Assembly: GCA_905212975.1 (NCBI GenBank)
Contig: CAJMGO010000004.1
Span: 4,044 to 68,043, forward strand
DNA from: an uncultured Bacillota bacterium
GTDB taxonomy: Bacteria > Bacillota_I > Bacilli_A > RF39 > UBA660
DNA length: 64,000 nt
Direction of reading: 5' to 3'
Position numbers and translations under genes: made by a program. The notes beneath the pieces are model-generated. The model searched no databases. It was not told the origin of the DNA and was given only the letters and a program-made list of their open reading frames with translations. This document shows positions 3,910-56,633 of this stretch, one piece after another. Position 1 is the stretch's first letter, and each line of letters starts with the position of its first letter.

Positions 3910-6900
3910 ATGAAAAAGTTTTCAAATTTTGTGTGTAAAAACAGAATAGCAATTTTGATTGTTTGTTCATTTTTATTTGTATTTTCAATAATAGGTACTA
4001 AAATGACAAAAATCAATTATGATATTTTAGTTTACTTACCAAAAGATATTGAAACAGTAAAAGGTCAAGATATAATGACAGATGAATTTGGTATGGGTGC
4101 ATATTCTGTTGTTATGACTGATAATATGAGTTCTAAAGAAATTTTAGAATTGGAAGAAAAATTTAGAAATATTGATGGAGTAAGTAAAGTTATAAGTGCT
4201 TATGATGTAATAGGTACTAATATTCCAATAAATATGCTTCCAAATAATATAAGTTCAAAACTTAATAAAGATTCTACTGATTTGTTATTTGTTACATTCG
4301 ATGAATCTACATCATCTATTAAAACTATAGATGCTATAAGAGAAATGAAAAAAATAAACAAAGACGATGTTAGTATAAGTGGTATGAGTTCTATGGTATT
4401 AGATACTATGGATTTATCAGAAAGAGAAATATTTATATATGTTGTAATAGCTGTTATTTTATGCTTACTTGTTCTTGAACTTTCTTTGGATTCTTATTTA
4501 GTACCAGTATTATTGTTAGCAAATATTGGTATAGCTATTTTATATAATTTAGGATCAAATATTATATTTGGAGAAATATCTTATATAACAAAAGCATTGG
4601 TTGCCGTATTACAACTTGGTGTTACAACTGACTTTTCTATATTCTTATATCACTCATATGAAAATAAGAAGAAAGATATAAAAGATAAAAATGAAGCAAT
4701 GAGTGAAGCAATATGTGAAACATTTATATCAGTAACTGGTAGTTCACTTACAACAATTGTTGGATTTCTAGTTCTTTGTACAATGAATTTAACTCTTGGT
4801 AAAGATTTAGGGCTTGTAATGGCTAAAGGTGTATTTTTAGGAGTAGTATGTGTTTTAACTTTGTTCCCAAGTTTACTTCTTACATTTGATTCACTAATAG
4901 AGAAAACTAAACATAAAGCTATTAAATTTAGTTTTAAAGGAATAAATAAATTTGTAATTAAACATTATAAAGCAATATTTATTGTATTTATTATATTGCT
5001 TATACCACTTTATAAAGCAAATAGTAAGGTAAGTGTTTATTATAAAATTGATGAAAGTTTACCAAAAAATTTACATAGTATAGTAGCTAATGAAAAATTA
5101 AAAGAAAAATTTAATATAGTTTCTGCAGAAATTATATTAGTTGATAAAAATATGAAAGCATCTGATCAAGAAAAGATGGTATCAGAAATAGAATCATTAG
5201 ATGGCATTGATTTTGTATTATCATTTTCTAAAGTAGAAGAACTTGGTATAACAAGAAATATGTTAAGTGATGATTTATTAAAAGTATTTGAAAGTGATAA
5301 ATATCAAATGATGTTATTAAATTCTGAATATGATGTCGCTACAGATGAATTAAATAATCAAGTAGATAGTATTAATACAATAATAAAAAAATATGATAAA
5401 AATGCTATATTAGCTGGAGAAGGTCCGCTAATGAAAGATTTAGTTACAATAAGTGATGAAGATTTTAATAGTGTAAATACATCTTCTATATTCTTTATAT
5501 TAATAGTAATGTTATTTGTTCTAAAATCAGTATCACTTCCAATATTATTGATTTTAGCAATAGAAGCTGCAATATTTACAAATATGGGAATATCTTATTT
5601 TTCAGGTTCAGTACTTCCTTTTGTAGCGCCAATAGTTCTTGGAACAATTCAACTTGGAGCAACAATTGATTATGCAATTCTATTGACTACTAATTTTATT
5701 AATTTAAGAAAACAAGGAAATAACAAATTTGAAGCTATAGAAAAATCATTAGATTATTGTTCTAATTCGATATTTGTAAGTGGAATGTGTTTCTTTGCAG
5801 CAACATTTGGTGTTGGTTTATATTCTGATCTAGAAATGGTTGGATCATTATGTACATTAATATCTAGAGGTGCAATTATAAGTATGATAGTTGTTATAAC
5901 TGTACTTCCTTCAATATTATTAGTTTTTGATAAATTAATAATAAAAACTACTTTGGGTATGAAAGGAATGAATAAAATGAAAAAGAAAACAATAAATAAA
6001 GCGAAAAAAGTACTTGCTGCTTTTCTAATTACTTCATGTGCATTATTACCAAATGTATCTTATGCACTAACAAAAGAAGAAACTGTATATGCTAAATTAA
6101 ATAGTGATGGTAGTGTAAAATCTACTACTGTAAATGAACATCTAATAAATGATGAAAAATTAGATTCAATTATTGATTATTCAGATTTAGAGAATATTAC
6201 TAATACTAATAGTAATAATAAATTTAAATCAGAAAATACTCTTTTAACTTGGGATGCTAAAGGAGAAGATATATTTTATCAAGGTACAACAAAAAAACAA
6301 TTACCTATAACTGAATCTGTTACTTATAAATTAAATGGTGAAGAAAAAGATTTAAAAGACATATTAGGTAAAAGTGGGAATATTGAGATAAATATTACTT
6401 ACACAAATTTAGATAAACATAATAAATATATAAATGGAAGATATGAAAATTTATATACTCCTTTTGTTGTAGCTACATCTACAGTTATACCAGTAGAAAA
6501 TAATAGTGATGTAACAATAACTAATGGTAAGGTTGTAAATAATGGAAACTCTTATGTATTAGTAGGTTTATCATCACCAGGCCTTTATGAAAGTACTCGT
6601 ATAAATGATTTAAAAGATTTTAATAAAATAACTATAAAATATAATACTAAAAATTTTGAATTATCATCAATTTATTCAATTATTACTCCAAAATTAATAA
6701 GTAGTAAAGATATAAACAGTTTAGTTAACTTAAATTCTTTATACAGTAGTGTAGAATTATTACAATCTTCAATTGATAAAATAGAAGAAGGTTCAAAAAA
6801 AGCTTTAGATGGTATAACTAGTGTTGAAGATGGAAGTATTAAAATAAATGATAACTTAAAAATTGTATCACAAAAATTAGATGAAATAAAAAATGGTAGT

Positions 6901-7701
6901 ATTTCAGTAGATAATGGATTAGAACAAATAATACAACAATTAGATAAATCAAGTGAAGTTTTAAATAATAAAGAGACATTGCAAAATATTGAAAATATGA
7001 AATTATTAATATCAAAGAATGAAGAAGTTATAAAATCTCTTGAAACATCAACAAGTTCATTGAAAGAAAATTATACTAAATATGCTTTAGCAAATAAAAC
7101 ATATGAAGAAATATTAAATGCTCCAACAGAAATAGATTTATATAATATTAAATTTACTTATGAAAATACATATTCAAAAAATGTTGAAATGTTAACTCTT
7201 TTAAAAACAAATAATGAAGCTTTAAAAACATCTTTAAATACATTTAATGAAGTTAATACAAAAATAACTACAACAATAACAACATTAAAAACATATTTAA
7301 ACCAAATAAAAATAGGAACAAGTAAATTATCATCAGGTACTTCTCAATTAAGTAGTGGAATGACTACACTAAGTGGTAAGATGAATGAACTTACAGCTGG
7401 TACAACAAACCTTAAAAATGGAATGACTACTTTAAATGATGGAATAGTAACATTTAATAATGATGGTATAAAGAAATTATCAAGTATGAGTAATACATTA
7501 AAAACATACTCTACAAGAGTAAATTCACTAGTTAAATTAAGTGAAGAATATAAAACAATGAATTTAAGTGGTGATAATGAAGCTAGTAGTAAATTTATAC
7601 TTGTAATAGATGGTGAAAAGAAAGAAAACAAAGTAACTAAAAAAGAAGAATCAGCAAAAAAAGAAACCATTGCTGATAGAACAAAAAAATTATTTAAATA
7701 A
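3910..7701 (+). CDS. MMPL-family (RND-like) membrane transporter fused to a large C-terminal YhgE/Pip-like repeat domain
   Basis: 1263 aa. N-terminal ~700 aa has two 6-TM bundles typical of MMPL. The C-terminal ~550 aa is Ser/Thr/Asn-rich with repeated ...LSSGTSQLSSGMTTLSGKMNELTAGTTNLKNGMTTLNDG... motifs characteristic of YhgE/Pip (phage infection protein) domains. Confidence 0.7.
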   Translation: MKKFSNFVCKNRIAILIVCSFLFVFSIIGTKMTKINYDILVYLPKDIETVKGQDIMTDEFGMGAYSVVMTDNMSSKEILELEEKFRNIDGVSKVISAYDVIGTNIPINMLPNNISSKLNKDSTDLLFVTFDESTSSIKTIDAIREMKKINKDDVSISGMSSMVLDTMDLSEREIFIYVVIAVILCLLVLELSLDSYLVPVLLLANIGIAILYNLGSNIIFGEISYITKALVAVLQLGVTTDFSIFLYHSYENKKKDIKDKNEAMSEAICETFISVTGSSLTTIVGFLVLCTMNLTLGKDLGLVMAKGVFLGVVCVLTLFPSLLLTFDSLIEKTKHKAIKFSFKGINKFVIKHYKAIFIVFIILLIPLYKANSKVSVYYKIDESLPKNLHSIVANEKLKEKFNIVSAEIILVDKNMKASDQEKMVSEIESLDGIDFVLSFSKVEELGITRNMLSDDLLKVFESDKYQMMLLNSEYDVATDELNNQVDSINTIIKKYDKNAILAGEGPLMKDLVTISDEDFNSVNTSSIFFILIVMLFVLKSVSLPILLILAIEAAIFTNMGISYFSGSVLPFVAPIVLGTIQLGATIDYAILLTTNFINLRKQGNNKFEAIEKSLDYCSNSIFVSGMCFFAATFGVGLYSDLEMVGSLCTLISRGAIISMIVVITVLPSILLVFDKLIIKTTLGMKGMNKMKKKTINKAKKVLAAFLITSCALLPNVSYALTKEETVYAKLNSDGSVKSTTVNEHLINDEKLDSIIDYSDLENITNTNSNNKFKSENTLLTWDAKGEDIFYQGTTKKQLPITESVTYKLNGEEKDLKDILGKSGNIEINITYTNLDKHNKYINGRYENLYTPFVVATSTVIPVENNSDVTITNGKVVNNGNSYVLVGLSSPGLYESTRINDLKDFNKITIKYNTKNFELSSIYSIITPKLISSKDINSLVNLNSLYSSVELLQSSIDKIEEGSKKALDGITSVEDGSIKINDNLKIVSQKLDEIKNGSISVDNGLEQIIQQLDKSSEVLNNKETLQNIENMKLLISKNEEVIKSLETSTSSLKENYTKYALANKTYEEILNAPTEIDLYNIKFTYENTYSKNVEMLTLLKTNNEALKTSLNTFNEVNTKITTTITTLKTYLNQIKIGTSKLSSGTSQLSSGMTTLSGKMNELTAGTTNLKNGMTTLNDGIVTFNNDGIKKLSSMSNTLKTYSTRVNSLVKLSEEYKTMNLSGDNEASSKFILVIDGEKKENKVTKKEESAKKETIADRTKKLFK

Positions 7702-7727
7702 AAGACTTCTAAAAAAGTCTTTTTTTT
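7701..7727 (+). terminator. Terminator of the MMPL gene
   Basis: AAAGACTT-ctaaaa-AAGTCTTT followed by T8. Confidence 0.7.
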
Positions 7728-7735
7728 GCTATAAT
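7727..7735 (+). promoter_or_regulatory. Extended -10 promoter (TGCTATAAT) for the LRR/radical-SAM operon
   Basis: TGnTATAAT lies immediately after the upstream terminator and 19 nt before the AGGTGAG RBS and ATG at 7754. Confidence 0.5.
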
Positions 7736-7753
7736 CAATAATAGGTGAGAATT

Positions 7754-9016
7754 ATGTTTAATATTATATTTATAGTAGTTATTATTTTTATTATTGTAAA
7801 GCAGGTAAAATCTTCATCAAAAATAGATTCAAGTCCTGTTACAATGGGTAATATTAAAATACAAAATAGTTCACAATATACTCTTAATCCAATATATAAC
7901 TTAAATGATAAGCAATTACTTGAACAAATGGTAAGAAGTGAATTAAAAAAACAAAATGTTGAAAAGATAAAATTGAAATCCGTTGAGAATATTAAAATTA
8001 TATTAACTTGTATTTTTTCTTTATTAAATATTGTTTTTATTTGTTGTATATTTTTTCATACATTTTCTTATAAATATTTATTTGAAATTTTAAATATAAT
8101 AGTGTATATAATTATGATGAATAAAGTAAATACAGTAAGTTATTTAAAAAAACAAATTAAAGCAAGACCAGATGAAAAAATATCTTATATTATATCTTCA
8201 AAAGTTCAAGGCTCAGGTAAATCTTTACTATTTATAAGAATGATTATAATTATTGTTAGCTTTTTTTCAATTCTATTTTTTATAAAGCCACATACTTTTT
8301 ATGAAAAGACAGATGAAGGATATTATGTAAGATTTTATACATATGGAATCACTAATTTTGAAACAGTTACGATTCCATCTACATATAAAAATGAAAAAGT
8401 TATTGGAATAAGAGGAAAAGTATTCAGTAATATGAAACTTATAAAAGAAATTAATTTACCTGATTCTATTGAAGTTATAAGAGGAAGAGCATTTGAAAAT
8501 GACTATTCTTTGGAAAAGATTAATTTACCTAAAAATTTAACATATTTAGGTGGTAGTGCATTTAAGAATTGTAGCTCTCTTATATCAATAGAGATACCTA
8601 GTGGTGTTAAAGAAATAAATGGTAGTACTTTTGAAGGATGTTCAAGTTTAAAATATGTTAAATTACATGATAATATAACATCTATACATGGTTCAGTATT
8701 TAAAAATTGTTCAGATTTAGAAGAAATAAAATTACCAAAAAATATTACAGAAATAAGAGGTAATACTTTTGAAGAATGTACATCTCTTAAATCAATTGAT
8801 ATACCATATGGTGTTACAAGAATAGGTGGGCATGCATTTTACGGTTGTACTAATTTAAGGAGTGTTAAAGTTCCATCTACGGTTAAGGAAATAGGAAGTT
8901 CAGCATTTAGAAAGTGTCTTTCTTTAGATATTATTAATATCCCAGAAGATACAATTGTAAATGATAGAGCATTTAAAGAAAGTCCAACATTGGTATATAG
9001 GTATCAAGATGAGTAA
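7754..9016 (+). CDS. Membrane-anchored BspA-type leucine-rich-repeat (LRR_5) protein
   Basis: N-terminal ~200 aa contain about four hydrophobic TM segments. The C-terminal ~200 aa hold about eight tandem ~23 aa repeats (INLPxxLTYLGGSAFKNCSSL / IPSGVKEINGSTFEGCSSL ...). Start taken at ATG 7754 (RBS AGGTGAG) rather than the GTG at 7745. Confidence 0.65.
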   Translation: MFNIIFIVVIIFIIVKQVKSSSKIDSSPVTMGNIKIQNSSQYTLNPIYNLNDKQLLEQMVRSELKKQNVEKIKLKSVENIKIILTCIFSLLNIVFICCIFFHTFSYKYLFEILNIIVYIIMMNKVNTVSYLKKQIKARPDEKISYIISSKVQGSGKSLLFIRMIIIIVSFFSILFFIKPHTFYEKTDEGYYVRFYTYGITNFETVTIPSTYKNEKVIGIRGKVFSNMKLIKEINLPDSIEVIRGRAFENDYSLEKINLPKNLTYLGGSAFKNCSSLISIEIPSGVKEINGSTFEGCSSLKYVKLHDNITSIHGSVFKNCSDLEEIKLPKNITEIRGNTFEECTSLKSIDIPYGVTRIGGHAFYGCTNLRSVKVPSTVKEIGSSAFRKCLSLDIINIPEDTIVNDRAFKESPTLVYRYQDE

Positions 9017-10739
9017 TATGAAATTTATACATTTATTATATGTCCCAACTATGGCATGTAATATGAATTGTAAATATTGTTATTTGGAAGATAATACAAA
9101 AGATGAAATGAAACAATATAAAGCAATTGATACATTAAAATATGCAATAAATAAATTTAAAAATAATAATGTGATGCCATTTAATATTTCACTCCATGGA
9201 GGAGAAGTAACAACTCTAAGTAAAGAAGATTTTCATGATATTATAGAGTATATAAGTAACTATTATAAGGAAAATAAAAATTTAATAGAAGAAAATGGTT
9301 TTAGAGTTGGTACCCCACATATAAAAACAAACTTATATAATTTAGAAAAACATATAGATACAATAAAAGAATTTAATGTATCTATTAGTGGTAGTTTGGA
9401 TTTACCTTTTTCTTTACATGATGAATATAGAATTACAAAAGGTAATAATAAAACATTAGATAAAATCTTAAAAAATATTGAATTATTAAATAAATTAGAA
9501 AATAAGAAAAAGGTATCTGCTACTATATTTAAAGAACACTATAATAGAATCGATGAAATAATAGAAAATATAGAGTATTTAAATAAAAATACATGTTTAG
9601 ATATGAATGATTTTAATTTCATGATAGGATTTGATTATAATTCTAACGGGTTATTAACTCCACTTACAGAAGAAGAACAAGTAGATTTCTTTAATAAAAT
9701 GCATGAACACTTTGATAATACAGATTTAGATTCAGGTGTTAATGGGGCATGGTTTAATGAATTTGGACCAGATTATTGTACTAATTGTGATAATTGTGGA
9801 GAAAAATTCTTTTTACTTGAAAAAAATGGAGATATTTATTCTTGCGTAAGAGGTCAAAAACATAAAGAATTTTATTATGGAAATATTTACAATAATACGA
9901 TAGAAGAAATACTAAATAATGCTTATGAAAAAATTATGAAAGCACATAATATGCAAAAGATGAGTGAAGAATGTAAAAATTGTGAGTATTTATATATATG
10001 TAAAACAGGGTGCCCATTTGTTAAAAATATTTATAATTCTAATAAGTCTTATACTTGCAAACTACAAAAAGAATTATATAAAAAAAGAAATTATGAACCA
10101 ATTAATGATAAGTCTATAATGTATGATTATATGTGTAAGATGCATCCTGATATAGCAGATGAATTTATAGTTAAAAATAATAATGAACATAAAAATTTAG
10201 AAGATTTAATAAAGGAAGATATACATTTAAAATATATATATGATCCAAACTCATTTATCTTAAGTATTGATGGAAATGAATATAATTTAGAGTCACAAAT
10301 ATTAAAAAAATCAAGGGAAATAGTATATATAACTAATAAAAGTAAAGTTGTTTTATATATAAGAAAAAATATAATAAATGAAGAATGTGAATATCCAGAG
10401 AACAATTCTGTTTGGATTATGCTATTAAGTGGAGATACAGTACAATATGGTGATGAAAAAAGAGTGAAACAAAGACATATAATGACACATCAGATATATA
10501 AAGGTGTACTTAATCAAATAAAATGTAATAAAGATGATTTTTATTGCTATGATATTACAAATTTATTAAAAGAATATAGTATATATCTATCAAATACTAA
10601 TCCAAATAATATATTTTTTACAACAGCATCACTTAGGGATTATCATTATTTAAAACAAAAAAATAATGCATATTACCATATAGAAGCAATAAATTTACCT
10701 TTTCAAAATATAGAGTTTAATTATTTAGAATGGAAGTGA
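9009..10739 (+). CDS. Radical SAM / SPASM-domain enzyme with ~200 aa C-terminal extension of unknown function
   Basis: CNMNCKYC is a Cx3Cx2C radical-SAM cluster motif and GGEVTTL is a SAM-binding motif. The SPASM/twitch region shows GDIYSC...YYGNIY and CKNCEYLYICKTGC (Cx2Cx5Cx3C). The ATG overlaps the LRR gene stop (ATGAGTAA), indicating translational coupling. Residues ~380-576 have no recognisable motif. Confidence 0.8.
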   Translation: MSNMKFIHLLYVPTMACNMNCKYCYLEDNTKDEMKQYKAIDTLKYAINKFKNNNVMPFNISLHGGEVTTLSKEDFHDIIEYISNYYKENKNLIEENGFRVGTPHIKTNLYNLEKHIDTIKEFNVSISGSLDLPFSLHDEYRITKGNNKTLDKILKNIELLNKLENKKKVSATIFKEHYNRIDEIIENIEYLNKNTCLDMNDFNFMIGFDYNSNGLLTPLTEEEQVDFFNKMHEHFDNTDLDSGVNGAWFNEFGPDYCTNCDNCGEKFFLLEKNGDIYSCVRGQKHKEFYYGNIYNNTIEEILNNAYEKIMKAHNMQKMSEECKNCEYLYICKTGCPFVKNIYNSNKSYTCKLQKELYKKRNYEPINDKSIMYDYMCKMHPDIADEFIVKNNNEHKNLEDLIKEDIHLKYIYDPNSFILSIDGNEYNLESQILKKSREIVYITNKSKVVLYIRKNIINEECEYPENNSVWIMLLSGDTVQYGDEKRVKQRHIMTHQIYKGVLNQIKCNKDDFYCYDITNLLKEYSIYLSNTNPNNIFFTTASLRDYHYLKQKNNAYYHIEAINLPFQNIEFNYLEWK

Positions 10740-10743
10740 AAGT

Positions 10744-11106
10744 ATGTTTAAAGAACCAGAAACATATAATGATTTAATTAGAACAAAAAGGTGTTCTGAT
10801 TTAGCAAAATATTTTGATATACCTAAAGAAATACTAGAAGAAATATGGAATTTTTTATCTCAAAATCCAAAAAATAACGTATATGCATCAAGCAATAAAA
10901 TTAATTTATATACTAATAATAATTTGATAAAGGTTGAAACTTTACCAACTTCTTGTTCAAGTGTAAGTGGTATAAAAATATCAGATAAAGAATTTAAAAT
11001 ATATCCAATTTATACACCAAGTTCATCTAGAAATTATTATACATCAAGTGGCCGTTCTTCTAATAACAATAATAACAACAACAATAATAATAACAATAAT
11101 AACTAG
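10744..11106 (+). CDS. Hypothetical 120 aa protein with a Ser/Tyr-rich C-terminal region ending in a poly-Asn tail; candidate substrate or partner of the rSAM enzyme
   Basis: Starts 4 nt after the rSAM stop. The C-terminus is ...PIYTPSSSRNYYTSSGRSS(N)14, encoded by an imperfect (AAT/AAC)n trinucleotide repeat. Only 2 Cys. Confidence 0.5.
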   Translation: MFKEPETYNDLIRTKRCSDLAKYFDIPKEILEEIWNFLSQNPKNNVYASSNKINLYTNNNLIKVETLPTSCSSVSGIKISDKEFKIYPIYTPSSSRNYYTSSGRSSNNNNNNNNNNNNNN

Positions 11107-11108
11107 AC

Positions 11109-12125
11109 ATGATAAGAGTTTATGATAAAGCTCATTATAATAGATTAAATGAGTATAATGTAAAAATTAAAACTACATATAAAGATGATAAGTCATTACA
11201 TGTAGTGGATGATAATACAAAAAATGATATTGTTGATGGTATTAGATTAGAAAAAGAATATTATAAAGATAATAAATTAGTTTATAAAATAAAAGATTTT
11301 GATCCAAGAATTAAATATACATTTGTAACTAATAATGAAGATGATAAAATAATTAAATGCCCAAATTGTGGTATGAGTGATATTGGTAAAAATTTTAAAG
11401 AAGGATGTCCTTATTGTGGTACATATTATAATGTTGATTATGAAAATAAAAGTTTAGGCGCTAAATATCATTATGATAGAGCTATTAAAGAAAGCAAATA
11501 TTTATTTATAACTTTTGTTGTTGATTTAATTATGAGTTTTTTAATAATGTTTTGCTATATAAAAATAACAGGAAGAACTTTTAATGTTTATGATATATCA
11601 AAAATATTTATTTATACAATAATACTTGCTGCAGCTCTTTTTTATGTATTTTATATGCTAAATGCGTTTATTATAACTTTACCTGTAAAAATATATAAAG
11701 ATAAAATTAATAAACGTCAAATAGAGTTTTGGAACAGAATGAAAGATATAAATAAAAATACATTTTATAATAATCTTAATTATGAATTACAAAACTATTT
11801 TTATAAAGATATTCCAAATATAATTGATTATGATATTATTGATTATATAGAATTTAAGGAACAATATGATGAAAAGCATAATTTATATATATGTGTTAAA
11901 TTGAAATTGAGAATTGTAAAAATAGAAAATAATAAAATAATGTCTTATGAAGAGGTAAAGAATATTAAATTAGAAAAAAATGATGTAAAAATAGAACAAT
12001 TAAATAGTGGAATTAATGTAATAAAATGTAGAGGTTGTGGAGCATCAATCGATGTAACACAAAATGAATGTGAATATTGCGGTGTAAAGACAAATTATTT
12101 ACAAGAATGGTATCTAATAAAGTAA
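11109..12125 (+). CDS. Membrane protein with two CxxC-N-CxxC zinc-ribbon motifs flanking two TM helices
   Basis: CPNCG...CPYCG (res ~84-103) and CRGCG...CEYCG (C-terminal), with two hydrophobic helices in between. Starts 2 nt after the preceding stop. Confidence 0.55.
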   Translation: MIRVYDKAHYNRLNEYNVKIKTTYKDDKSLHVVDDNTKNDIVDGIRLEKEYYKDNKLVYKIKDFDPRIKYTFVTNNEDDKIIKCPNCGMSDIGKNFKEGCPYCGTYYNVDYENKSLGAKYHYDRAIKESKYLFITFVVDLIMSFLIMFCYIKITGRTFNVYDISKIFIYTIILAAALFYVFYMLNAFIITLPVKIYKDKINKRQIEFWNRMKDINKNTFYNNLNYELQNYFYKDIPNIIDYDIIDYIEFKEQYDEKHNLYICVKLKLRIVKIENNKIMSYEEVKNIKLEKNDVKIEQLNSGINVIKCRGCGASIDVTQNECEYCGVKTNYLQEWYLIK

Positions 12126-12164
12126 ATAAAAATCTTTGATATACTAAAGAAATAAAAAAAGAAG

Positions 12165-12191
12165 AAAGTACAAAATTATTGTACTTTTTTT
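12165..12191 (+). terminator. Terminator closing the LRR/rSAM operon
   Basis: AAAGTACAA-aattat-TTGTACTTT followed by T-run. Confidence 0.7.
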
Positions 12192-12249: not shown

Positions 12250-14154
12250 ATGTTTTTTAAAAATATACATTCAAGAATTAGAGTGGTACTTTTATTAATC
12301 ATAATGCTATTTTTATGTGTTATTATTAAGGTATTCTATATACAAGTTATAAGTTATAAAAAACTTTCTAATTTAGCTTATGATCTTTGGAATAGAAATC
12401 TTCCTATAGAAGCAGATAGAGGAAAAATATATGATAGAAATGGTGTTGTACTAGCTGATAACAAAACTACAGTTTCTCTTGTAATAATTCCAAATCAAGT
12501 AAAAGATAAAAAAGAAGTATCTGAAAAATTATCAGAAATATTAAATGTTAGTTATGATGAAATTTATGAACATGTAAGTAAAAAAACTTCTATCGAAAGA
12601 ATTCATCCGGAAGGAAGAAGATTATCTTTTTCTATAGCAGATAAAATAGATTCACTAAATTTAGATGGGGTATATCTCTTAAAGGAATCAGCTCGTACAT
12701 ATCCATATGATAAATTATTATCTCATGTACTTGGATATGTGGGAATAGATAATCAAGGACTTAGTGGTTTGGAACTTATGTATGAAGATTATTTAACAGG
12801 TAAGTATGGATCAATAAAATATGTATCTGATGCTAAGGGAAATAGAATGGAATTATCAGAAACATATGTAGAACCACAAGATGGTATGAATATAAATTTG
12901 ACAATAAATTTTGAAATACAGCAAGCATTAGAAAGAGAATTAGATAATGCAGTAAGTAGATACAATCCTGATCAAGCAATTGGTATAGTAATGAATCCAA
13001 ATACTGGAGAAATTTTAGCTATGTCATCTCGACCAAATTTTTCTCCAACTAATTATAAGGATTACTCAAAAGAAGAAATAAATAGAAATTTACCAATATG
13101 GGCAACATATGAACCAGGTTCAACTTTCAAAATAATAACACTCGCAACAGCACTAGAAGAAAAACTAATAGATTTAGATAAAGATACCTTTACAGATACA
13201 GGAAGTGTTAATGTAGCTGGTGCCAGAATAAAATGTTGGAAACATGGAGGTCATGGTACACAAACTTTATTGCAAGTTGTAGAGAATTCTTGCAATCCAG
13301 GTTTTGTATATATTGGACAAAAAATAGGAAAAGAGACTTTATTTAAGTATATTAAAAACTTTGGTTTTGGAAGTAAAACTGGTATTGATTTAAATGGAGA
13401 AAGTAAAGGAATTTTATTTAAAGAAGAAAATGTAGGACCTGTCGAACTTGCAACAACATCATTTGGTCAAGGAGTAAGTGTTACTCCAATGCAACAAGTA
13501 GTAGCTGTATCTGCAGCAATTAACGGTGGATATATTTATCAGCCTTATATAGTTAAAAGCATAAATGAACCTGAAACTAATTCAGTAATACTTGAAAATA
13601 AATCTAAAGTATTAAGAAAAGTAATAAGTGAAGAAACTAGTGAAAAAGTTAGATATGCACTTGAAAGTGTCGCAACGAATGGGTCTGGAAGAAATGCTTT
13701 TATAGAGGGATATAGAGTAGGTGGTAAGACAGGTACAGCACAAAAAGCAGTAAATGGATCTTATTTAGTAGGAAATTATATTACTTCATTCATTGGCTTT
13801 TTACCTGCCAATGATCCTAAAGTTGTAGTTTATGTAGCAATAGATAATGCTAAAGGTGTAACACAATATGGTGGTACTGTTGCAGCCCCTATAGCGCGTA
13901 ATTTAATGGTAAGTATTATAGATATATTAAATATAGAAAAACCAAGTGGTGGAAGTAGCAAAAAATATAATTGGTATGATAAGAAATATGCAACTGTAAA
14001 TGATGTAACAGGATTAAGTTTAAGTGATGCATTAAATTCTTTAAAACAATTTAAAGTTGAATATAAGGGGAATGGTGATACTGTTATCCATCAATCTCCA
14101 AAAGGTGGAGAATCAATATATGAAGGTGAAACAGTAATGCTTTATTTAAATTAG
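12250..14154 (+). CDS. Class B penicillin-binding protein (FtsI/SpoVD family) with C-terminal PASTA domain
   Basis: N-terminal TM, PBP dimerisation domain, transpeptidase motifs STFK, SCN and KTGT, and a C-terminal PASTA domain (VNDVTGLSLSDALNSLKQFKVEYKG...). Followed by mraY and a SEDS gene, as in the B. subtilis spoVD-...-mraY-...-spoVE cluster. Confidence 0.85.
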   Translation: MFFKNIHSRIRVVLLLIIMLFLCVIIKVFYIQVISYKKLSNLAYDLWNRNLPIEADRGKIYDRNGVVLADNKTTVSLVIIPNQVKDKKEVSEKLSEILNVSYDEIYEHVSKKTSIERIHPEGRRLSFSIADKIDSLNLDGVYLLKESARTYPYDKLLSHVLGYVGIDNQGLSGLELMYEDYLTGKYGSIKYVSDAKGNRMELSETYVEPQDGMNINLTINFEIQQALERELDNAVSRYNPDQAIGIVMNPNTGEILAMSSRPNFSPTNYKDYSKEEINRNLPIWATYEPGSTFKIITLATALEEKLIDLDKDTFTDTGSVNVAGARIKCWKHGGHGTQTLLQVVENSCNPGFVYIGQKIGKETLFKYIKNFGFGSKTGIDLNGESKGILFKEENVGPVELATTSFGQGVSVTPMQQVVAVSAAINGGYIYQPYIVKSINEPETNSVILENKSKVLRKVISEETSEKVRYALESVATNGSGRNAFIEGYRVGGKTGTAQKAVNGSYLVGNYITSFIGFLPANDPKVVVYVAIDNAKGVTQYGGTVAAPIARNLMVSIIDILNIEKPSGGSSKKYNWYDKKYATVNDVTGLSLSDALNSLKQFKVEYKGNGDTVIHQSPKGGESIYEGETVMLYLN

Positions 14155-14208
14155 AATAGTTTTAATATTCTAATTTTTTTTTACATATTATTTATTAGGT
14201 GATGTAAT

Positions 14209-15201
14209 ATGTTAATACTTACGAAGTCAGTTTTAATTTTAGTAATTAGTTTTATTTTATCAGTACTTATAGGACTTGTCTTAATTCCTATATTAAGAAA
14301 ATTTAAAGCAAGTCAATCATTAAGCATTTACCTAGAAGAACGTCATAAAAGTAAAAAAGGTACTCCGACAATGGGTGGATTAATATTTATAATTACACCT
14401 ATTATAGTTATTACCATATTATATTTACTTGGTAAAATAGAATTATCTTTTAATTTTGTCATAATAATTTTTACATTTTTAGCATATTCACTTATTGGTT
14501 TTATAGATGATTATTTAATAATAAAGAGGCATAATAATAAAGGTTTAACAGAAGGACAAAAATTTTTTATGCAAGTAATAGTTGCTGTTATATATTTTTA
14601 TCTATTTATGAAAGCAAATAATGAACCATTACTTTGGATACATGCTTTAAACTTAAAAGCTGATATTGGCTGGTTTTATGGATTATTTATACTATTTGTG
14701 CTTGTAGCTTCATCAAATGCAGTTAATCTAACAGATGGATTAGATGGTCTTGCAGGAGGTCTTTCTTTTATAGCTGTACTAACATTTGCAATTATAACAT
14801 ATTCTACAGGCTGGCTTTATGGATATGAAGAAATTGCCTTATTTTTATTTAGTATAAGTGGAGCAGTACTAGGATTTTTAGTATTTAATTCTAATCCAGC
14901 AAAAGTATTTATGGGTGATACTGGATCACTTTCTCTTGGAGCCTTACTTGGTTCAGTTGCAATTTTAACGAGGCATGAAATACTTCTTATAGTAATAGGC
15001 ATTGTATTTGTTATAGAAACTCTAACTTGTATTATTCAAATTATATATTATAAATTTACTCATAAAAGATTTTTCCCAATGACTCCTATACATCATACAT
15101 TTGAAAAAATAGGATGGGAAGAAAAAGACATTGTAAAATTATTTTGGATAATAGGATTAATAGGATCAACTATTGGAATTATATATGGGGTATGGATATG
15201 A
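14209..15201 (+). CDS. mraY: Phospho-N-acetylmuramoyl-pentapeptide transferase
   Basis: 10-TM protein with MraY motifs (KKGTPTMGGL, NAVNLTDGLDGLA, FMGDTGSLSLGA). Confidence 0.9.
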   Translation: MLILTKSVLILVISFILSVLIGLVLIPILRKFKASQSLSIYLEERHKSKKGTPTMGGLIFIITPIIVITILYLLGKIELSFNFVIIIFTFLAYSLIGFIDDYLIIKRHNNKGLTEGQKFFMQVIVAVIYFYLFMKANNEPLLWIHALNLKADIGWFYGLFILFVLVASSNAVNLTDGLDGLAGGLSFIAVLTFAIITYSTGWLYGYEEIALFLFSISGAVLGFLVFNSNPAKVFMGDTGSLSLGALLGSVAILTRHEILLIVIGIVFVIETLTCIIQIIYYKFTHKRFFPMTPIHHTFEKIGWEEKDIVKLFWIIGLIGSTIGIIYGVWI

Positions 15202-20327: not shown

Positions 20328-20401
20328 GGGTCTATAGCCAAGTGGTAAGGCGTGGGACTGCAACTCCCTGATCGTTGGTTCAAATCCGACTAGGCCCTCC
20401 A
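20328..20401 (+). tRNA. tRNA-Cys (GCA)
   Basis: Cloverleaf with acceptor GGGTCTA/TAGGCCC, anticodon loop CTGCAAC, T-loop GGTTCAAATCC, and encoded CCA. Confidence 0.85.
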
Positions 20402-21507: not shown

Positions 21508-21542
21508 TTGTAAATTTTATTTTATATTGCTATAATTAAATT

Positions 21543-21710
21543 ACTAGAGGAAGTTATAAAAGAAAAACCTACAAGTAAACGATTCGGGAACTTAATGAAT
21601 AGGTTGTGTTGAATGCTTAAATTTATTTAAGAATCCTAATATTTATTCTGTAGTGCCCACCTGGTAGAACAGGTTTTATCGTTTAGACTTCTTCTAGTTT
21701 TTTTTTTGTA
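21543..21710 (+). ncRNA. Candidate structured RNA or complex terminator between the pilin gene and ftsK
   Basis: ACTAGAGGAAGT (21543-21554) pairs with ACTTCTTCTAGT (21688-21699) with one G-U, enclosing ~135 nt with internal complementary stretches (AAACGAT/ATCGTTT, AAAACC/GGTTTT). It is followed by T10. Confidence 0.25.
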
Positions 21711-55137: not shown

Positions 55138-55214
<77 letters not shown>

Positions 55215-56465: not shown

Positions 56466-56552
56466 TGGTGCAGGTGAAGGGACTTGAACCCCCATGTCGT
56501 AAGACACTAGATCCTAAGTCTAGCGCGTCTGCCAATTTCGCCACACCTGCAC
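56466..56552 (-). tRNA. tRNA-Leu (TAG)
   Basis: Minus-strand read GTGCAGGTGTGGCGAAATTGGCAGACGCGCTAGACTTAGGATCTAGTG..(long variable arm)..GGTTCAAGTCCCTTCACCTGCACCA. Anticodon loop CTTAGGA. Confidence 0.85.
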
Positions 56553-56556
56553 AAGA

Positions 56557-56633
56557 TGGTGGACCCTATAGGACTCGAACCTATGACCGCCCGGTTATGA
56601 GCCGGATGCTCTAACCAACTGAGCTAAGGGTCC
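56557..56633 (-). tRNA. tRNA with CAT anticodon (elongator Met or Ile2-lysidine)
   Basis: Minus-strand read GGACCCTTAGCTCAGTTGGTTAGAGCATCCGGCTCATAACCGGGCGGTCATAGGTTCGAGTCCTATAGGGTCCACCA. Confidence 0.8.

Follow-up and report, generated by a model that had tools for sequence, protein, structure and literature searches.

What does a radical S-adenosylmethionine (SAM) enzyme modify when the genes beside it resemble none of the usual partners? This question is raised by a four-gene operon of an uncultured Bacillota bacterium (GTDB lineage RF39; UBA660; assembly GCA_905212975.1, contig CAJMGO010000004.1). The stretch of the contig that was analysed, here called the window, is 64,000 nucleotides (nt) long with a base composition of 24% G+C, and coordinates throughout are those of the window. 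The operon encodes a membrane protein with leucine-rich repeats (LRR), a radical SAM/SPASM enzyme, a protein of 120 amino acids (aa) that ends in a run of 14 Asn, and a membrane protein with two zinc ribbons (Table 1). It is probably a protein-modification system with a core of two genes, in which the enzyme would modify the C-terminal Asn run of its neighbor. The core is assigned to the enzyme and the Asn-tailed protein because this pair persists in distant bacteria and in phages without the LRR and zinc-ribbon genes.

Much new peptide and protein chemistry comes from radical SAM/SPASM enzymes, and an Asn tail would be a new kind of substrate. No account of an enzyme/poly-Asn system was found in the literature searched or in the family libraries. 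No radical SAM/SPASM enzyme is known to act on a homopolymeric Asn tail, and none was found in the literature searched. All of the family members seen are named 'hypothetical', 'uncharacterized', or by a bare domain name. The family is widespread, with 219 species-level genomes of gut Bacilli, 458 environmental loci, and Campylobacter and related phages. The modification would be directly testable with the two-gene core.

The enzyme, its cassette, and the asparagine tail

The second gene encodes a genuine radical SAM/SPASM protein, as the initial annotation had claimed from its cysteine motifs, and it fits no characterised family. The radical SAM cluster motif, C17x3C21x2C24 (9057-9080), does not vary among 46 orthologues or in distant relatives. 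The auxiliary motifs are C322x2C325x5C331x3C335 and GDIYSC279, with eight auxiliary Cys located within 9777-10058. Pfam placed Radical_SAM, Fer4_12, and SPASM domains within residues 11-326. The cut-offs of PF04055 (Radical SAM, 41.5 bits against 29.5), TIGR04085 (SPASM, 46.5 against 27), and PF13186 (SPASM, 26.6 against 21.5) were passed. In NCBIfam, only the generic SPASM model was passed and no equivalog cut-off was reached. The highest equivalog scores were 98 bits for DynA (NF041298, cut-off 450) and 92 bits for the anaerobic sulfatase-maturating enzyme, anSME (TIGR03942, NF010308, and NF010321, cut-off 349). The enzyme is therefore not an anSME, an identity that the initial annotation had named as a possible refutation. 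None of the four proteins had a match better than E 0.005 among the PADLOC-DB 2.0 defence models.

A structure model of the enzyme from AlphaFold2 (AF2) had a predicted local distance difference test score (pLDDT) of 82.9. The closest structure found with Foldseek was anSMEcpe (PDB 4K36-4K39, E 3e-15), followed by CteB, ChlB, SuiB, and SkfB. The structural alignments to known enzymes cover only the first ~380 residues. In a profile alignment to anSME, C257, C263, C279, and C335, together with C322, C325, C331, and C350, fall on what we take to be the eight ligands of the anSME auxiliary clusters. These eight and the three Cys of the radical SAM motif are the only invariant Cys in the enzyme family. 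Both auxiliary clusters are probably fully Cys-ligated.

Beyond the region shared with known enzymes lies a family-specific C-terminal domain. It carries invariant polar and aromatic motifs, YG[DG]x.R.K..H, TT...R..HY, and N..YH....NLPF. It had been described as a domain of about 200 aa without a recognisable match, and indeed no match was found for it in Pfam, in PDB sequences, or among specific folds. Structure comparison gave only a beta-sandwich, which is a generic binding fold. A search of 1.84 billion representatives with the domain (phmmer) gave no more than 94 proteins. The near-full-length matches were all radical SAM fusions of 588-616 aa and the others were fragments. One apparent match of 810 aa with 12 C-terminal-motif repeats (P0165) was discarded as a spurious repetitive sequence. 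The Asn-tailed partner is presumed to dock on this domain.

Among gut-metagenome protein clusters, more than 2000 homologues of the enzyme were found. Among the matches listed (120), these are ~580 aa in length with ~70% identity over the full length, and they are unnamed or 'uncharacterized'. Contigs of one GTDB genome per species were searched, relatives of the enzyme were found in 219 species, and the best 80 of the 219 were examined. These belong to uncultured gut 'Bacilli / Tenericutes / Mollicutes / Clostridium sp. CAG / Mycoplasma sp. CAG' and Candidatus Faecimonas. The CAG genomes with the cassette presumably belong to the GTDB order RF39. In every locus that is not cut by a contig end, the four genes occur together and in the same order (LRR, radical SAM, poly-Asn, zinc ribbon). 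The flanks are unrelated, and no flanking gene family is common to more than 9 of the 80 loci. Thus, the co-occurrence that had been proposed as a check is present across the gut genomes, and the operon is self-contained as first described.

The 120-aa protein consists of a conserved N-domain of ~90 aa, a Ser/Tyr/Gly-rich linker, and the terminal Asn run. In alignments of orthologues the linker follows the pattern ...HYTPSSSG..SGGSSS. Nothing in Pfam, NCBIfam, PADLOC, or PHROGs matched the protein. PDB matches to 'maltose-binding protein' (MBP) were obtained and were rejected, as they are due to the engineered SSS-N10 linker of MBP fusions. Dozens of MBP fusion entries match a Ser-Ser-Ser-Asn(n) linker-tail at E ~3e-4, which is a trap for automated annotation. 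Profile searches of PDB gave no true match for the 120-aa protein, the zinc-ribbon protein, or the enzyme's C-terminal domain.

The tail was found in 73 of the 80 gut loci, with a length of N8-18 and a mode of 13. It ends with Arg in 53 loci and with nothing after the run in 18; the others are truncated or interrupted by Thr. Runs of at least eight Asn occurred 72 times among 2933 open reading frames (ORFs) in 1.19 Mb of related loci, and all were at this gene position. A profile of the N-domain without its tail found seven protein clusters, and the tail was present in all seven. Small low-complexity ORFs seem to be under-called in the protein database. AAC makes up 37% of the Asn codons in the gut tails and 7.5% in the genes that surround the operon in the window.

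Tail length also varies between close relatives. In one cluster at 90% identity (P0215 and P0355-P0367), the N-domains are identical and the tails range from ~N4 to N13, with occasional H, T, D, and Q substitutions. Part of this variation may be assembly error and the rest polymorphism within the species.

Relatives in environmental bacteria and in phage tail modules

The pairing of enzyme and tail extends beyond the gut lineage. Contigs that carry matches of the C-terminal domain encode, directly after the enzyme gene, proteins ending in ...GTWT-N10-G (58% G+C) and ...GQS-N18-G (64% G+C). On another such contig, a protein with a tail of N14-G or more is encoded just upstream of the enzyme gene. 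A scan of JGI metagenomes with a G+C-rich enzyme as the seed found 458 relatives, of which the best 80 were examined (23-69% G+C, 37-62% identity to the seed). An Asn-tailed ORF adjoins the enzyme gene in ~70 of these 80 loci. It is mostly directly downstream and typically ends in ...RSS-N13-22-G. Contig ends truncate most of the loci without such an ORF.

Among the three bacterial subfamilies, the N-domains show distant homology by hhalign (probabilities of 97% and 57%). The membrane partners differ. The G+C-rich lineages have their own protein of ~155 aa with two transmembrane (TM) segments, encoded upstream of the enzyme. The low-G+C environmental lineages have a membrane protein of ~280 aa, encoded downstream. 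No mutual relation was found by hhalign among the membrane partners of the three bacterial architectures, and those of the environmental lineages had no Pfam match. When the flanks were grouped by similarity, no further gene was conserved beside the cassette or the enzyme-tail pair in the 80 gut and 80 environmental loci.

The Asn run is present in genomes of 66-69% G+C and is therefore not a by-product of base composition. In loci of at least 60% G+C, AAT makes up 33% of the tail codons against 18% in the enzyme genes (AAC 67% against 82%). The tail codons converge on an interleaved mix of AAT and AAC from both genomic biases. This codon usage and the conservation of the run indicate that the poly-Asn tail is selected, not accidental. 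Two metagenome loci of 66-69% G+C (L170 and L178) have pure AAC runs of 17 and 11 codons, and their tails (N22 and N18) are the longest in the group. These runs look like recent in-frame slippage expansions, unlike the interleaved codons that are usual in the tails.

Phages carry the enzyme as well. A search of IMG/VR gave 16 full-length relatives, one of them in a cassette of the gut-Bacilli type and 15 in myovirus tail modules. The 15 phage enzymes have 33-36% identity and keep all of the C-terminal-domain motifs. The order of the phage genes is baseplate genes, tail fibre, a protein of ~211 aa, enzyme, tail assembly chaperone, sheath, and tube. The PHROGs assignments are phrog_1162 for the fibre, phrog_10241 for the 211-aa protein, and phrog_1802 for the enzyme. 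The window enzyme aligned with the PHROG 1802 profile over residues 12-571 of 576 (profile 49-550 of 556, E 3e-44), and a phage enzyme (L093) matched it at E 6e-142. Thus, the homology to PHROG 1802, which includes WKW83149.1 of CAM-P21, covers the full length including the C-terminal domain, and an Asn-run protein is nearby in both. The partner differs, as it is a tail fibre with 2-7 Asn in the phages, and phage-specific neighbors (phrog_10241 and the tail assembly chaperone) are present. The annotation of PHROG 1802 is limited to the domain name 'radical SAM domain-containing protein'.

The enzyme lies two genes after a tail fibre with an Asn run in the 15 IMG/VR loci and in the Campylobacter phage CAM-P21. 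One of the IMG/VR enzymes is 100% identical to a 'hypothetical protein' of CAM-P21 (28053-29810 of MW462221.2, L167), and in that record the preceding gene is annotated as a tail fiber protein. Two of the phage loci encode a small extra protein after the fibre. At the C-terminus of the fibre, or of this extra protein, the sequences are ...STNNNNY, ...SSNNNNY, ...YSCNNNNN, ...SSGNNF, and ...FSNNNNNNLAGNV, the first of which ends the fibre in Mu-like phages of Campylobacter. By hhalign, the phage 211-aa protein had no relation to the N-domain of the 120-aa protein or to the zinc-ribbon protein.

A sister of these tail modules is present in a CJIE1-type Campylobacter jejuni prophage (L248, EF694689.1, 349-1911), which was compared with L093 (6307-9743) and L167. 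The first 152 residues of its fibre are ~93% identical to the enzyme-bearing version. The fibre then has a different C-terminus, ...SFMELR, without an Asn run. The genes for the enzyme and the 211-aa protein are missing, and the 169-aa cje0230 is found in their position. From its position and appearance, cje0230 is read as an ordinary tail-fibre assembly protein. The sister prophage that is without the Asn run is also without the enzyme, and therefore the run and the enzyme come and go together. As a separate observation, the two versions of the CJIE1-type fibre module in Campylobacter prophages look like a host-range cassette swap.

A proposed modification of asparagine runs and its alternatives

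The best explanation of these observations would place the partner protein of ~120 aa in the cytoplasm. The enzyme would dock it, probably through the C-terminal domain and without a leader-binding domain of the RiPP recognition element (RRE) type. The flexible Asn tail could then thread into the active site. There, 5'-deoxyadenosyl radicals would abstract hydrogen from the Asn run or from the preceding Ser/Thr, probably at several positions in turn. The auxiliary clusters would carry electrons off, and the result would be oxidative, for example a cross-link or dehydrogenation. The modified product would remain a protein, and the operon has no gene for a peptidase or exporter. The LRR and zinc-ribbon proteins of gut Bacilli would most likely serve at the membrane, to recruit the modified protein or make use of it, and unrelated small membrane proteins would have the same role in other lineages. 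In phages, the same enzyme family would act on the Asn-run tip of the tail fibre.

The preference for oxidative chemistry comes from the cysteines of the enzyme. If both auxiliary clusters are fully ligated, there would be no open iron site for a substrate Cys. As no invariant Cys is present beyond the 11 ligands, there would also be no spare hydrogen donor for epimerisation. A cross-link or dehydrogenation is therefore favored over a thioether or an epimerisation of the YydG/PoyD type. A thioether between Cys17 of the 120-aa protein and Asn was considered and dropped, as Cys17 is missing in ~10% of the orthologues that keep the tail.

The chances are about even that these enzymes represent an unrecognised class of modification. 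Such a family would process C-terminal homopolymeric Asn runs in bacteria of 23-69% G+C and mature the fibre tip in temperate phages. The product could be cross-linked or otherwise rigidified Asn with a role at membranes or surfaces. The system could bring to light new chemistry of Asn and an enzyme-based maturation of tail fibres that bears on phage host range. For a major uncultured lineage of human and animal guts, it could also point to a conserved function at the surface or membrane.

Several points weigh against this interpretation. The Asn runs of the phages are short (2-7 residues) and are on a protein unrelated to the bacterial partner, and therefore the enzyme may recognise a smaller element than the length of the bacterial tail implies. 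Three environmental loci (L211, L222, and L235) have the enzyme and no Asn-tailed gene nearby. The run might also serve for docking, and the residue that is modified could lie elsewhere. The roles proposed for the LRR and zinc-ribbon proteins come from their co-occurrence with the enzyme.

Known enzymes provide several comparisons. DynA and DarE (NF041298 and NF038005), the maturases of dynobactin and darobactin, are radical SAM/SPASM enzymes that form oxidative cross-links. DynA joins Trp to the beta-carbon of Asn. Their substrates are short aromatic-containing peptides that are cleaved and exported, whereas the core here has no aromatic residue and no gene for export or cleavage is present. 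The neighboring gene product is the 120-aa Asn14 protein and not a short W/N/H/Y precursor. PoyD and OspD of the proteusins, and YydG, are iterative epimerases that introduce many modifications along a C-terminal core on a long leader domain. Asn is abundant in the polytheonamide core. For YydG and PoyD, a conserved Cys is required as the hydrogen donor, and the lack of an invariant Cys beyond the 11 ligands in the window enzyme family argues against an epimerase mechanism. MftC/MftA and PqqE/PqqA are similar in that a vertically conserved radical SAM/SPASM enzyme acts near the extreme C-terminus of an adjacent small product. However, the mycofactocin maturase model gave 39 bits, with its cut-off at 265. 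Here, a PqqD/MftB-like chaperone, a peptidase, and a downstream tailoring enzyme are all missing, and the partner is a folded 120-aa protein with a homopolymeric tail.

An RRE or PqqD-type domain was not found by Pfam in any of the four proteins, and the enzyme has no room for an N-terminal RRE because its cluster motif starts at residue 17. It does not belong with the RRE-dependent maturases (CteB, SuiB, and PqqE with PqqD), and the structural matches to CteB and SuiB cover the core only. This bears on a classical pathway for a peptide that is synthesised ribosomally and modified post-translationally (RiPP) or bacteriocin. There, the 120-aa protein would be a long-leader precursor, its Asn-rich core would be cleaved and released, and the membrane proteins would serve for immunity or export. 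The arrangement of conserved N-domain, linker, and C-terminal core does resemble long-leader precursors. The small membrane partners vary by lineage, as immunity proteins do, and near-identical strains differ in tail length. Such a pathway is nevertheless unlikely. No peptidase, ABC exporter, or second copy of a precursor was seen in the three bacterial architectures, and the lack of the first two had been noted for the operon in the initial annotation. The 80 gut and 80 environmental loci hold no conserved extra gene of a RiPP cluster, and Pfam found only LRR, radical SAM/SPASM, and a weak zinc ribbon. The cassette is inherited at ~70% enzyme identity over more than 200 species of one lineage and is not sporadic. 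In addition, the Asn-run protein of the phages is a structural tail fibre. The earlier suggestion of an undescribed protein-modification module rather than a classical RiPP cluster is supported by this conservation and by the failure of the enzyme to enter any known family. Another explanation, also improbable, is that the Asn-tailed protein is an accessory subunit, scaffold, or chaperone, with poly-Asn maybe as a handle, and that the enzyme acts on another protein or a small molecule. The three loci without a nearby tail gene would agree with this, and the C-terminal beta-sandwich is only a generic binding fold. The radical SAM/SPASM systems for pyrroloquinoline quinone (PQQ) and mycofactocin use small partner proteins. 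However, the C-terminal Asn run is the single feature common to the bacterial family of 120-160 aa and the phage fibres, which is how a substrate motif would be expected to behave. Across all of the architectures, there is no other conserved gene.

That the LRR or zinc-ribbon protein is the substrate appears very unlikely. Both are absent from the G+C-rich, low-G+C environmental, and phage architectures, and the motifs of the enzyme are all kept there. The LRR domain is also predicted to be extracellular. In gut Bacilli the two proteins do co-occur strictly with the enzyme, the LRR and radical SAM genes are translationally coupled, and the BspA-type repeats are Cys-rich. The initial annotation had named the LRR or the poly-Asn protein as the likeliest substrate. 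The poly-Asn protein is retained, as its pairing with the enzyme persists in distant bacteria and phages, and the LRR protein is not, as its gene is absent there. Finally, the enzyme could be an anSME or another known SPASM maturase with its substrate elsewhere, and the poly-Asn a low-complexity accident of a genome of 24% G+C. AnSMEcpe is the closest solved structure and anSME the second-best NCBIfam match. Both enzymes have the radical SAM core and SPASM domain with eight aligned Cys (profile E 2e-15) and no N-terminal RRE, and anSMEcpe acts on a protein and not on a short peptide. This is nonetheless the least credible of the alternatives and close to negligible. The anSME and DynA scores are far below their cut-offs, and the identity to anSMEcpe is ~19%. 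The window enzyme has the extra 210-residue C-terminal beta-sandwich, which is unique to its family, and a poly-Asn partner. No sulfatase was seen among the cassette flanks, which were grouped by similarity and not annotated. The tail is kept up to 69% G+C with a counter-biased codon mix, and no run of at least eight Asn occurs elsewhere in the 1.19 Mb of related loci. The modification of the Asn run by the neighboring enzyme thus remains the preferred explanation.

Membrane proteins, operon signals, and neighboring genes

The two membrane proteins of the gut cassette are lineage-specific accessories. The LRR protein is predicted to have an N-terminal TM segment, a TM hairpin with an FFHxF motif, the conserved basic loop YLKKQIKARPDEKIS, another TM segment, and a C-terminal LRR domain (~residues 200-415). 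The repeats are of the BspA type (PF13306 LRR_5, 203.6 bits, E 1e-60, cut-off 27.7). Many orthologues begin with a double CxxC zinc ribbon that is followed by an FFHFP TM hairpin, the basic loop, and one TM segment. Because the orthologues have an N-terminal cytoplasmic zinc ribbon and three TM segments, and because of the positive-inside rule, the prediction is that the conserved loop lies inside the cell and the LRR domain outside. An LRR orthologue was present upstream of the enzyme in 79 of the 80 gut loci.

The zinc-ribbon protein is always encoded fourth in the cassette. Its CxxC pairs are at residues 84/87, 100/103, 307/310, and 321/324, and across 43 orthologues each of these eight Cys is invariant or almost invariant. 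As two TM helices lie between the ribbons, both ribbons would be on one side of the membrane, presumably the cytoplasm. Searches of Pfam, NCBIfam, PADLOC, and PHROGs gave only weak sub-threshold matches, with PF12773 (DZR) at 21.8 bits against a cut-off of 27.3. A total of 578 homologues were found. All are ~338 aa and are unnamed or 'hypothetical', and a wider profile search for relatives gave the same 338-aa family only. The best guess is that, at the membrane, the LRR and zinc-ribbon proteins hold the modified protein or make use of it.

The four-gene operon and its motifs, as described in the initial annotation, were all present (Table 1). The tight coupling of the four ORFs was also confirmed. 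The ATG of the radical SAM gene overlaps the stop codon of the LRR gene at ATGAGTAA. A gap of 4 nt separates the radical SAM gene from that of the 120-aa protein, and one of 2 nt precedes the zinc-ribbon gene. The LRR gene starts at the ATG at 7754, downstream of AGGTGA (7744-7749); a listed alternative, GTG at 7745, falls within the ribosome-binding site of the gene.

Table 1. Features of the operon in the window and the range of protein identity among the gut loci
Feature	Position	Strand	Product or basis	Identity to window protein in gut loci
Upstream terminator (hairpin and T run) of the MMPL-type gene; 5' boundary of the operon	7700-7728	+	Fold against shuffles	
Candidate promoter, extended -10-like element TGCTATAAT	7727-7735	+	Read directly from the sequence	
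LRR gene	7754-9016	+	420 aa	32-63%
Radical SAM gene	9009-10739	+	576 aa	71-78% (core)
Family-specific C-terminal domain of the enzyme, residues 366-576 (~210 residues)	10104-10736	+	Ig-like beta-sandwich	54-68%
Asn-tailed protein gene	10744-11106	+	120 aa	29-48%
Asn14 tail, candidate modification site	11062-11103	+	Interleaved AAT/AAC codons, TCTTCCCTTTCTTC	
Zinc-ribbon protein gene	11109-12125	+	338 aa	41-54%
Two CxxC...CxxC zinc ribbons of the 338-aa protein	11358-11417, 12027-12080	+	CxxC pairs	
Two TM helices of the zinc-ribbon protein	~11481-11678	+	Between the ribbons	
Operon-ending terminator, hairpin and T run	12161-12191	+	Fold against shuffles	

The terminator that had been proposed downstream of the operon is supported by a hairpin of -11.3 kcal/mol (z -4.41), and none of 200 shuffles was equally stable. 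The hairpin at the 5' boundary (7700-7723) has -7.2 kcal/mol and z -3.35 against shuffles, and a T run follows it. A consensus terminator scan detected neither hairpin because the stems are A+T-rich and without G-C pairs. The promoter that had been claimed for the operon is a candidate. The element TGCTATAAT is present and is plausible as the operon promoter. However, a good -35 element was not found for it, and promoter-like sites were not enriched over shuffles in this region of 24% G+C (46 found, 52 expected).

Two loci deserve mention for the arrangement of the cassette. One metagenome-assembled genome (RGIG9051) has the cassette and its upstream flank on two contigs (L010 and L011), which is probably an assembly duplicate and not a second copy. 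The gut-type cassette from IMG/VR (L087, IMGVR_UViG_3300029664_000120) is complete, with 62% identity and a tail of SSS-N14-R, on a contig of 44.9 kb that is classed as viral. It may be the neighbor of a prophage or a misclassification.

Upstream of the operon is a gene for an MMPL-like membrane protein of 1263 aa (3910-7701, + strand). The C-terminal half of this protein contains a coiled-coil-like stretch of ~500 residues that is rich in Ser, Thr, and Asn. In no more than a few of the related loci (L040, L064, L074, and L077) is a homologue of it found beside the cassette. Directly downstream of the operon (12250-15201, + strand) are a penicillin-binding-protein-like gene (634 aa) and an MraY-like gene (330 aa), a flank that is common to only 3-4 related loci. 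The presence of these two genes indicates that peptidoglycan synthesis is kept despite the 'Tenericutes/Mollicutes' labels on related genomes. The window also contains a 6S RNA (21538-21704, + strand; Rfam RF00013, 56.9 bits) and tRNA genes at 20328-20398, 55138-55211, 56469-56550, and 56560-56633. A protein of 138 aa (846-1262, + strand) has a strongly acidic C-terminal half with a run of nine Glu, reminiscent of the acidic tail on the RNA polymerase delta subunit in Bacilli.

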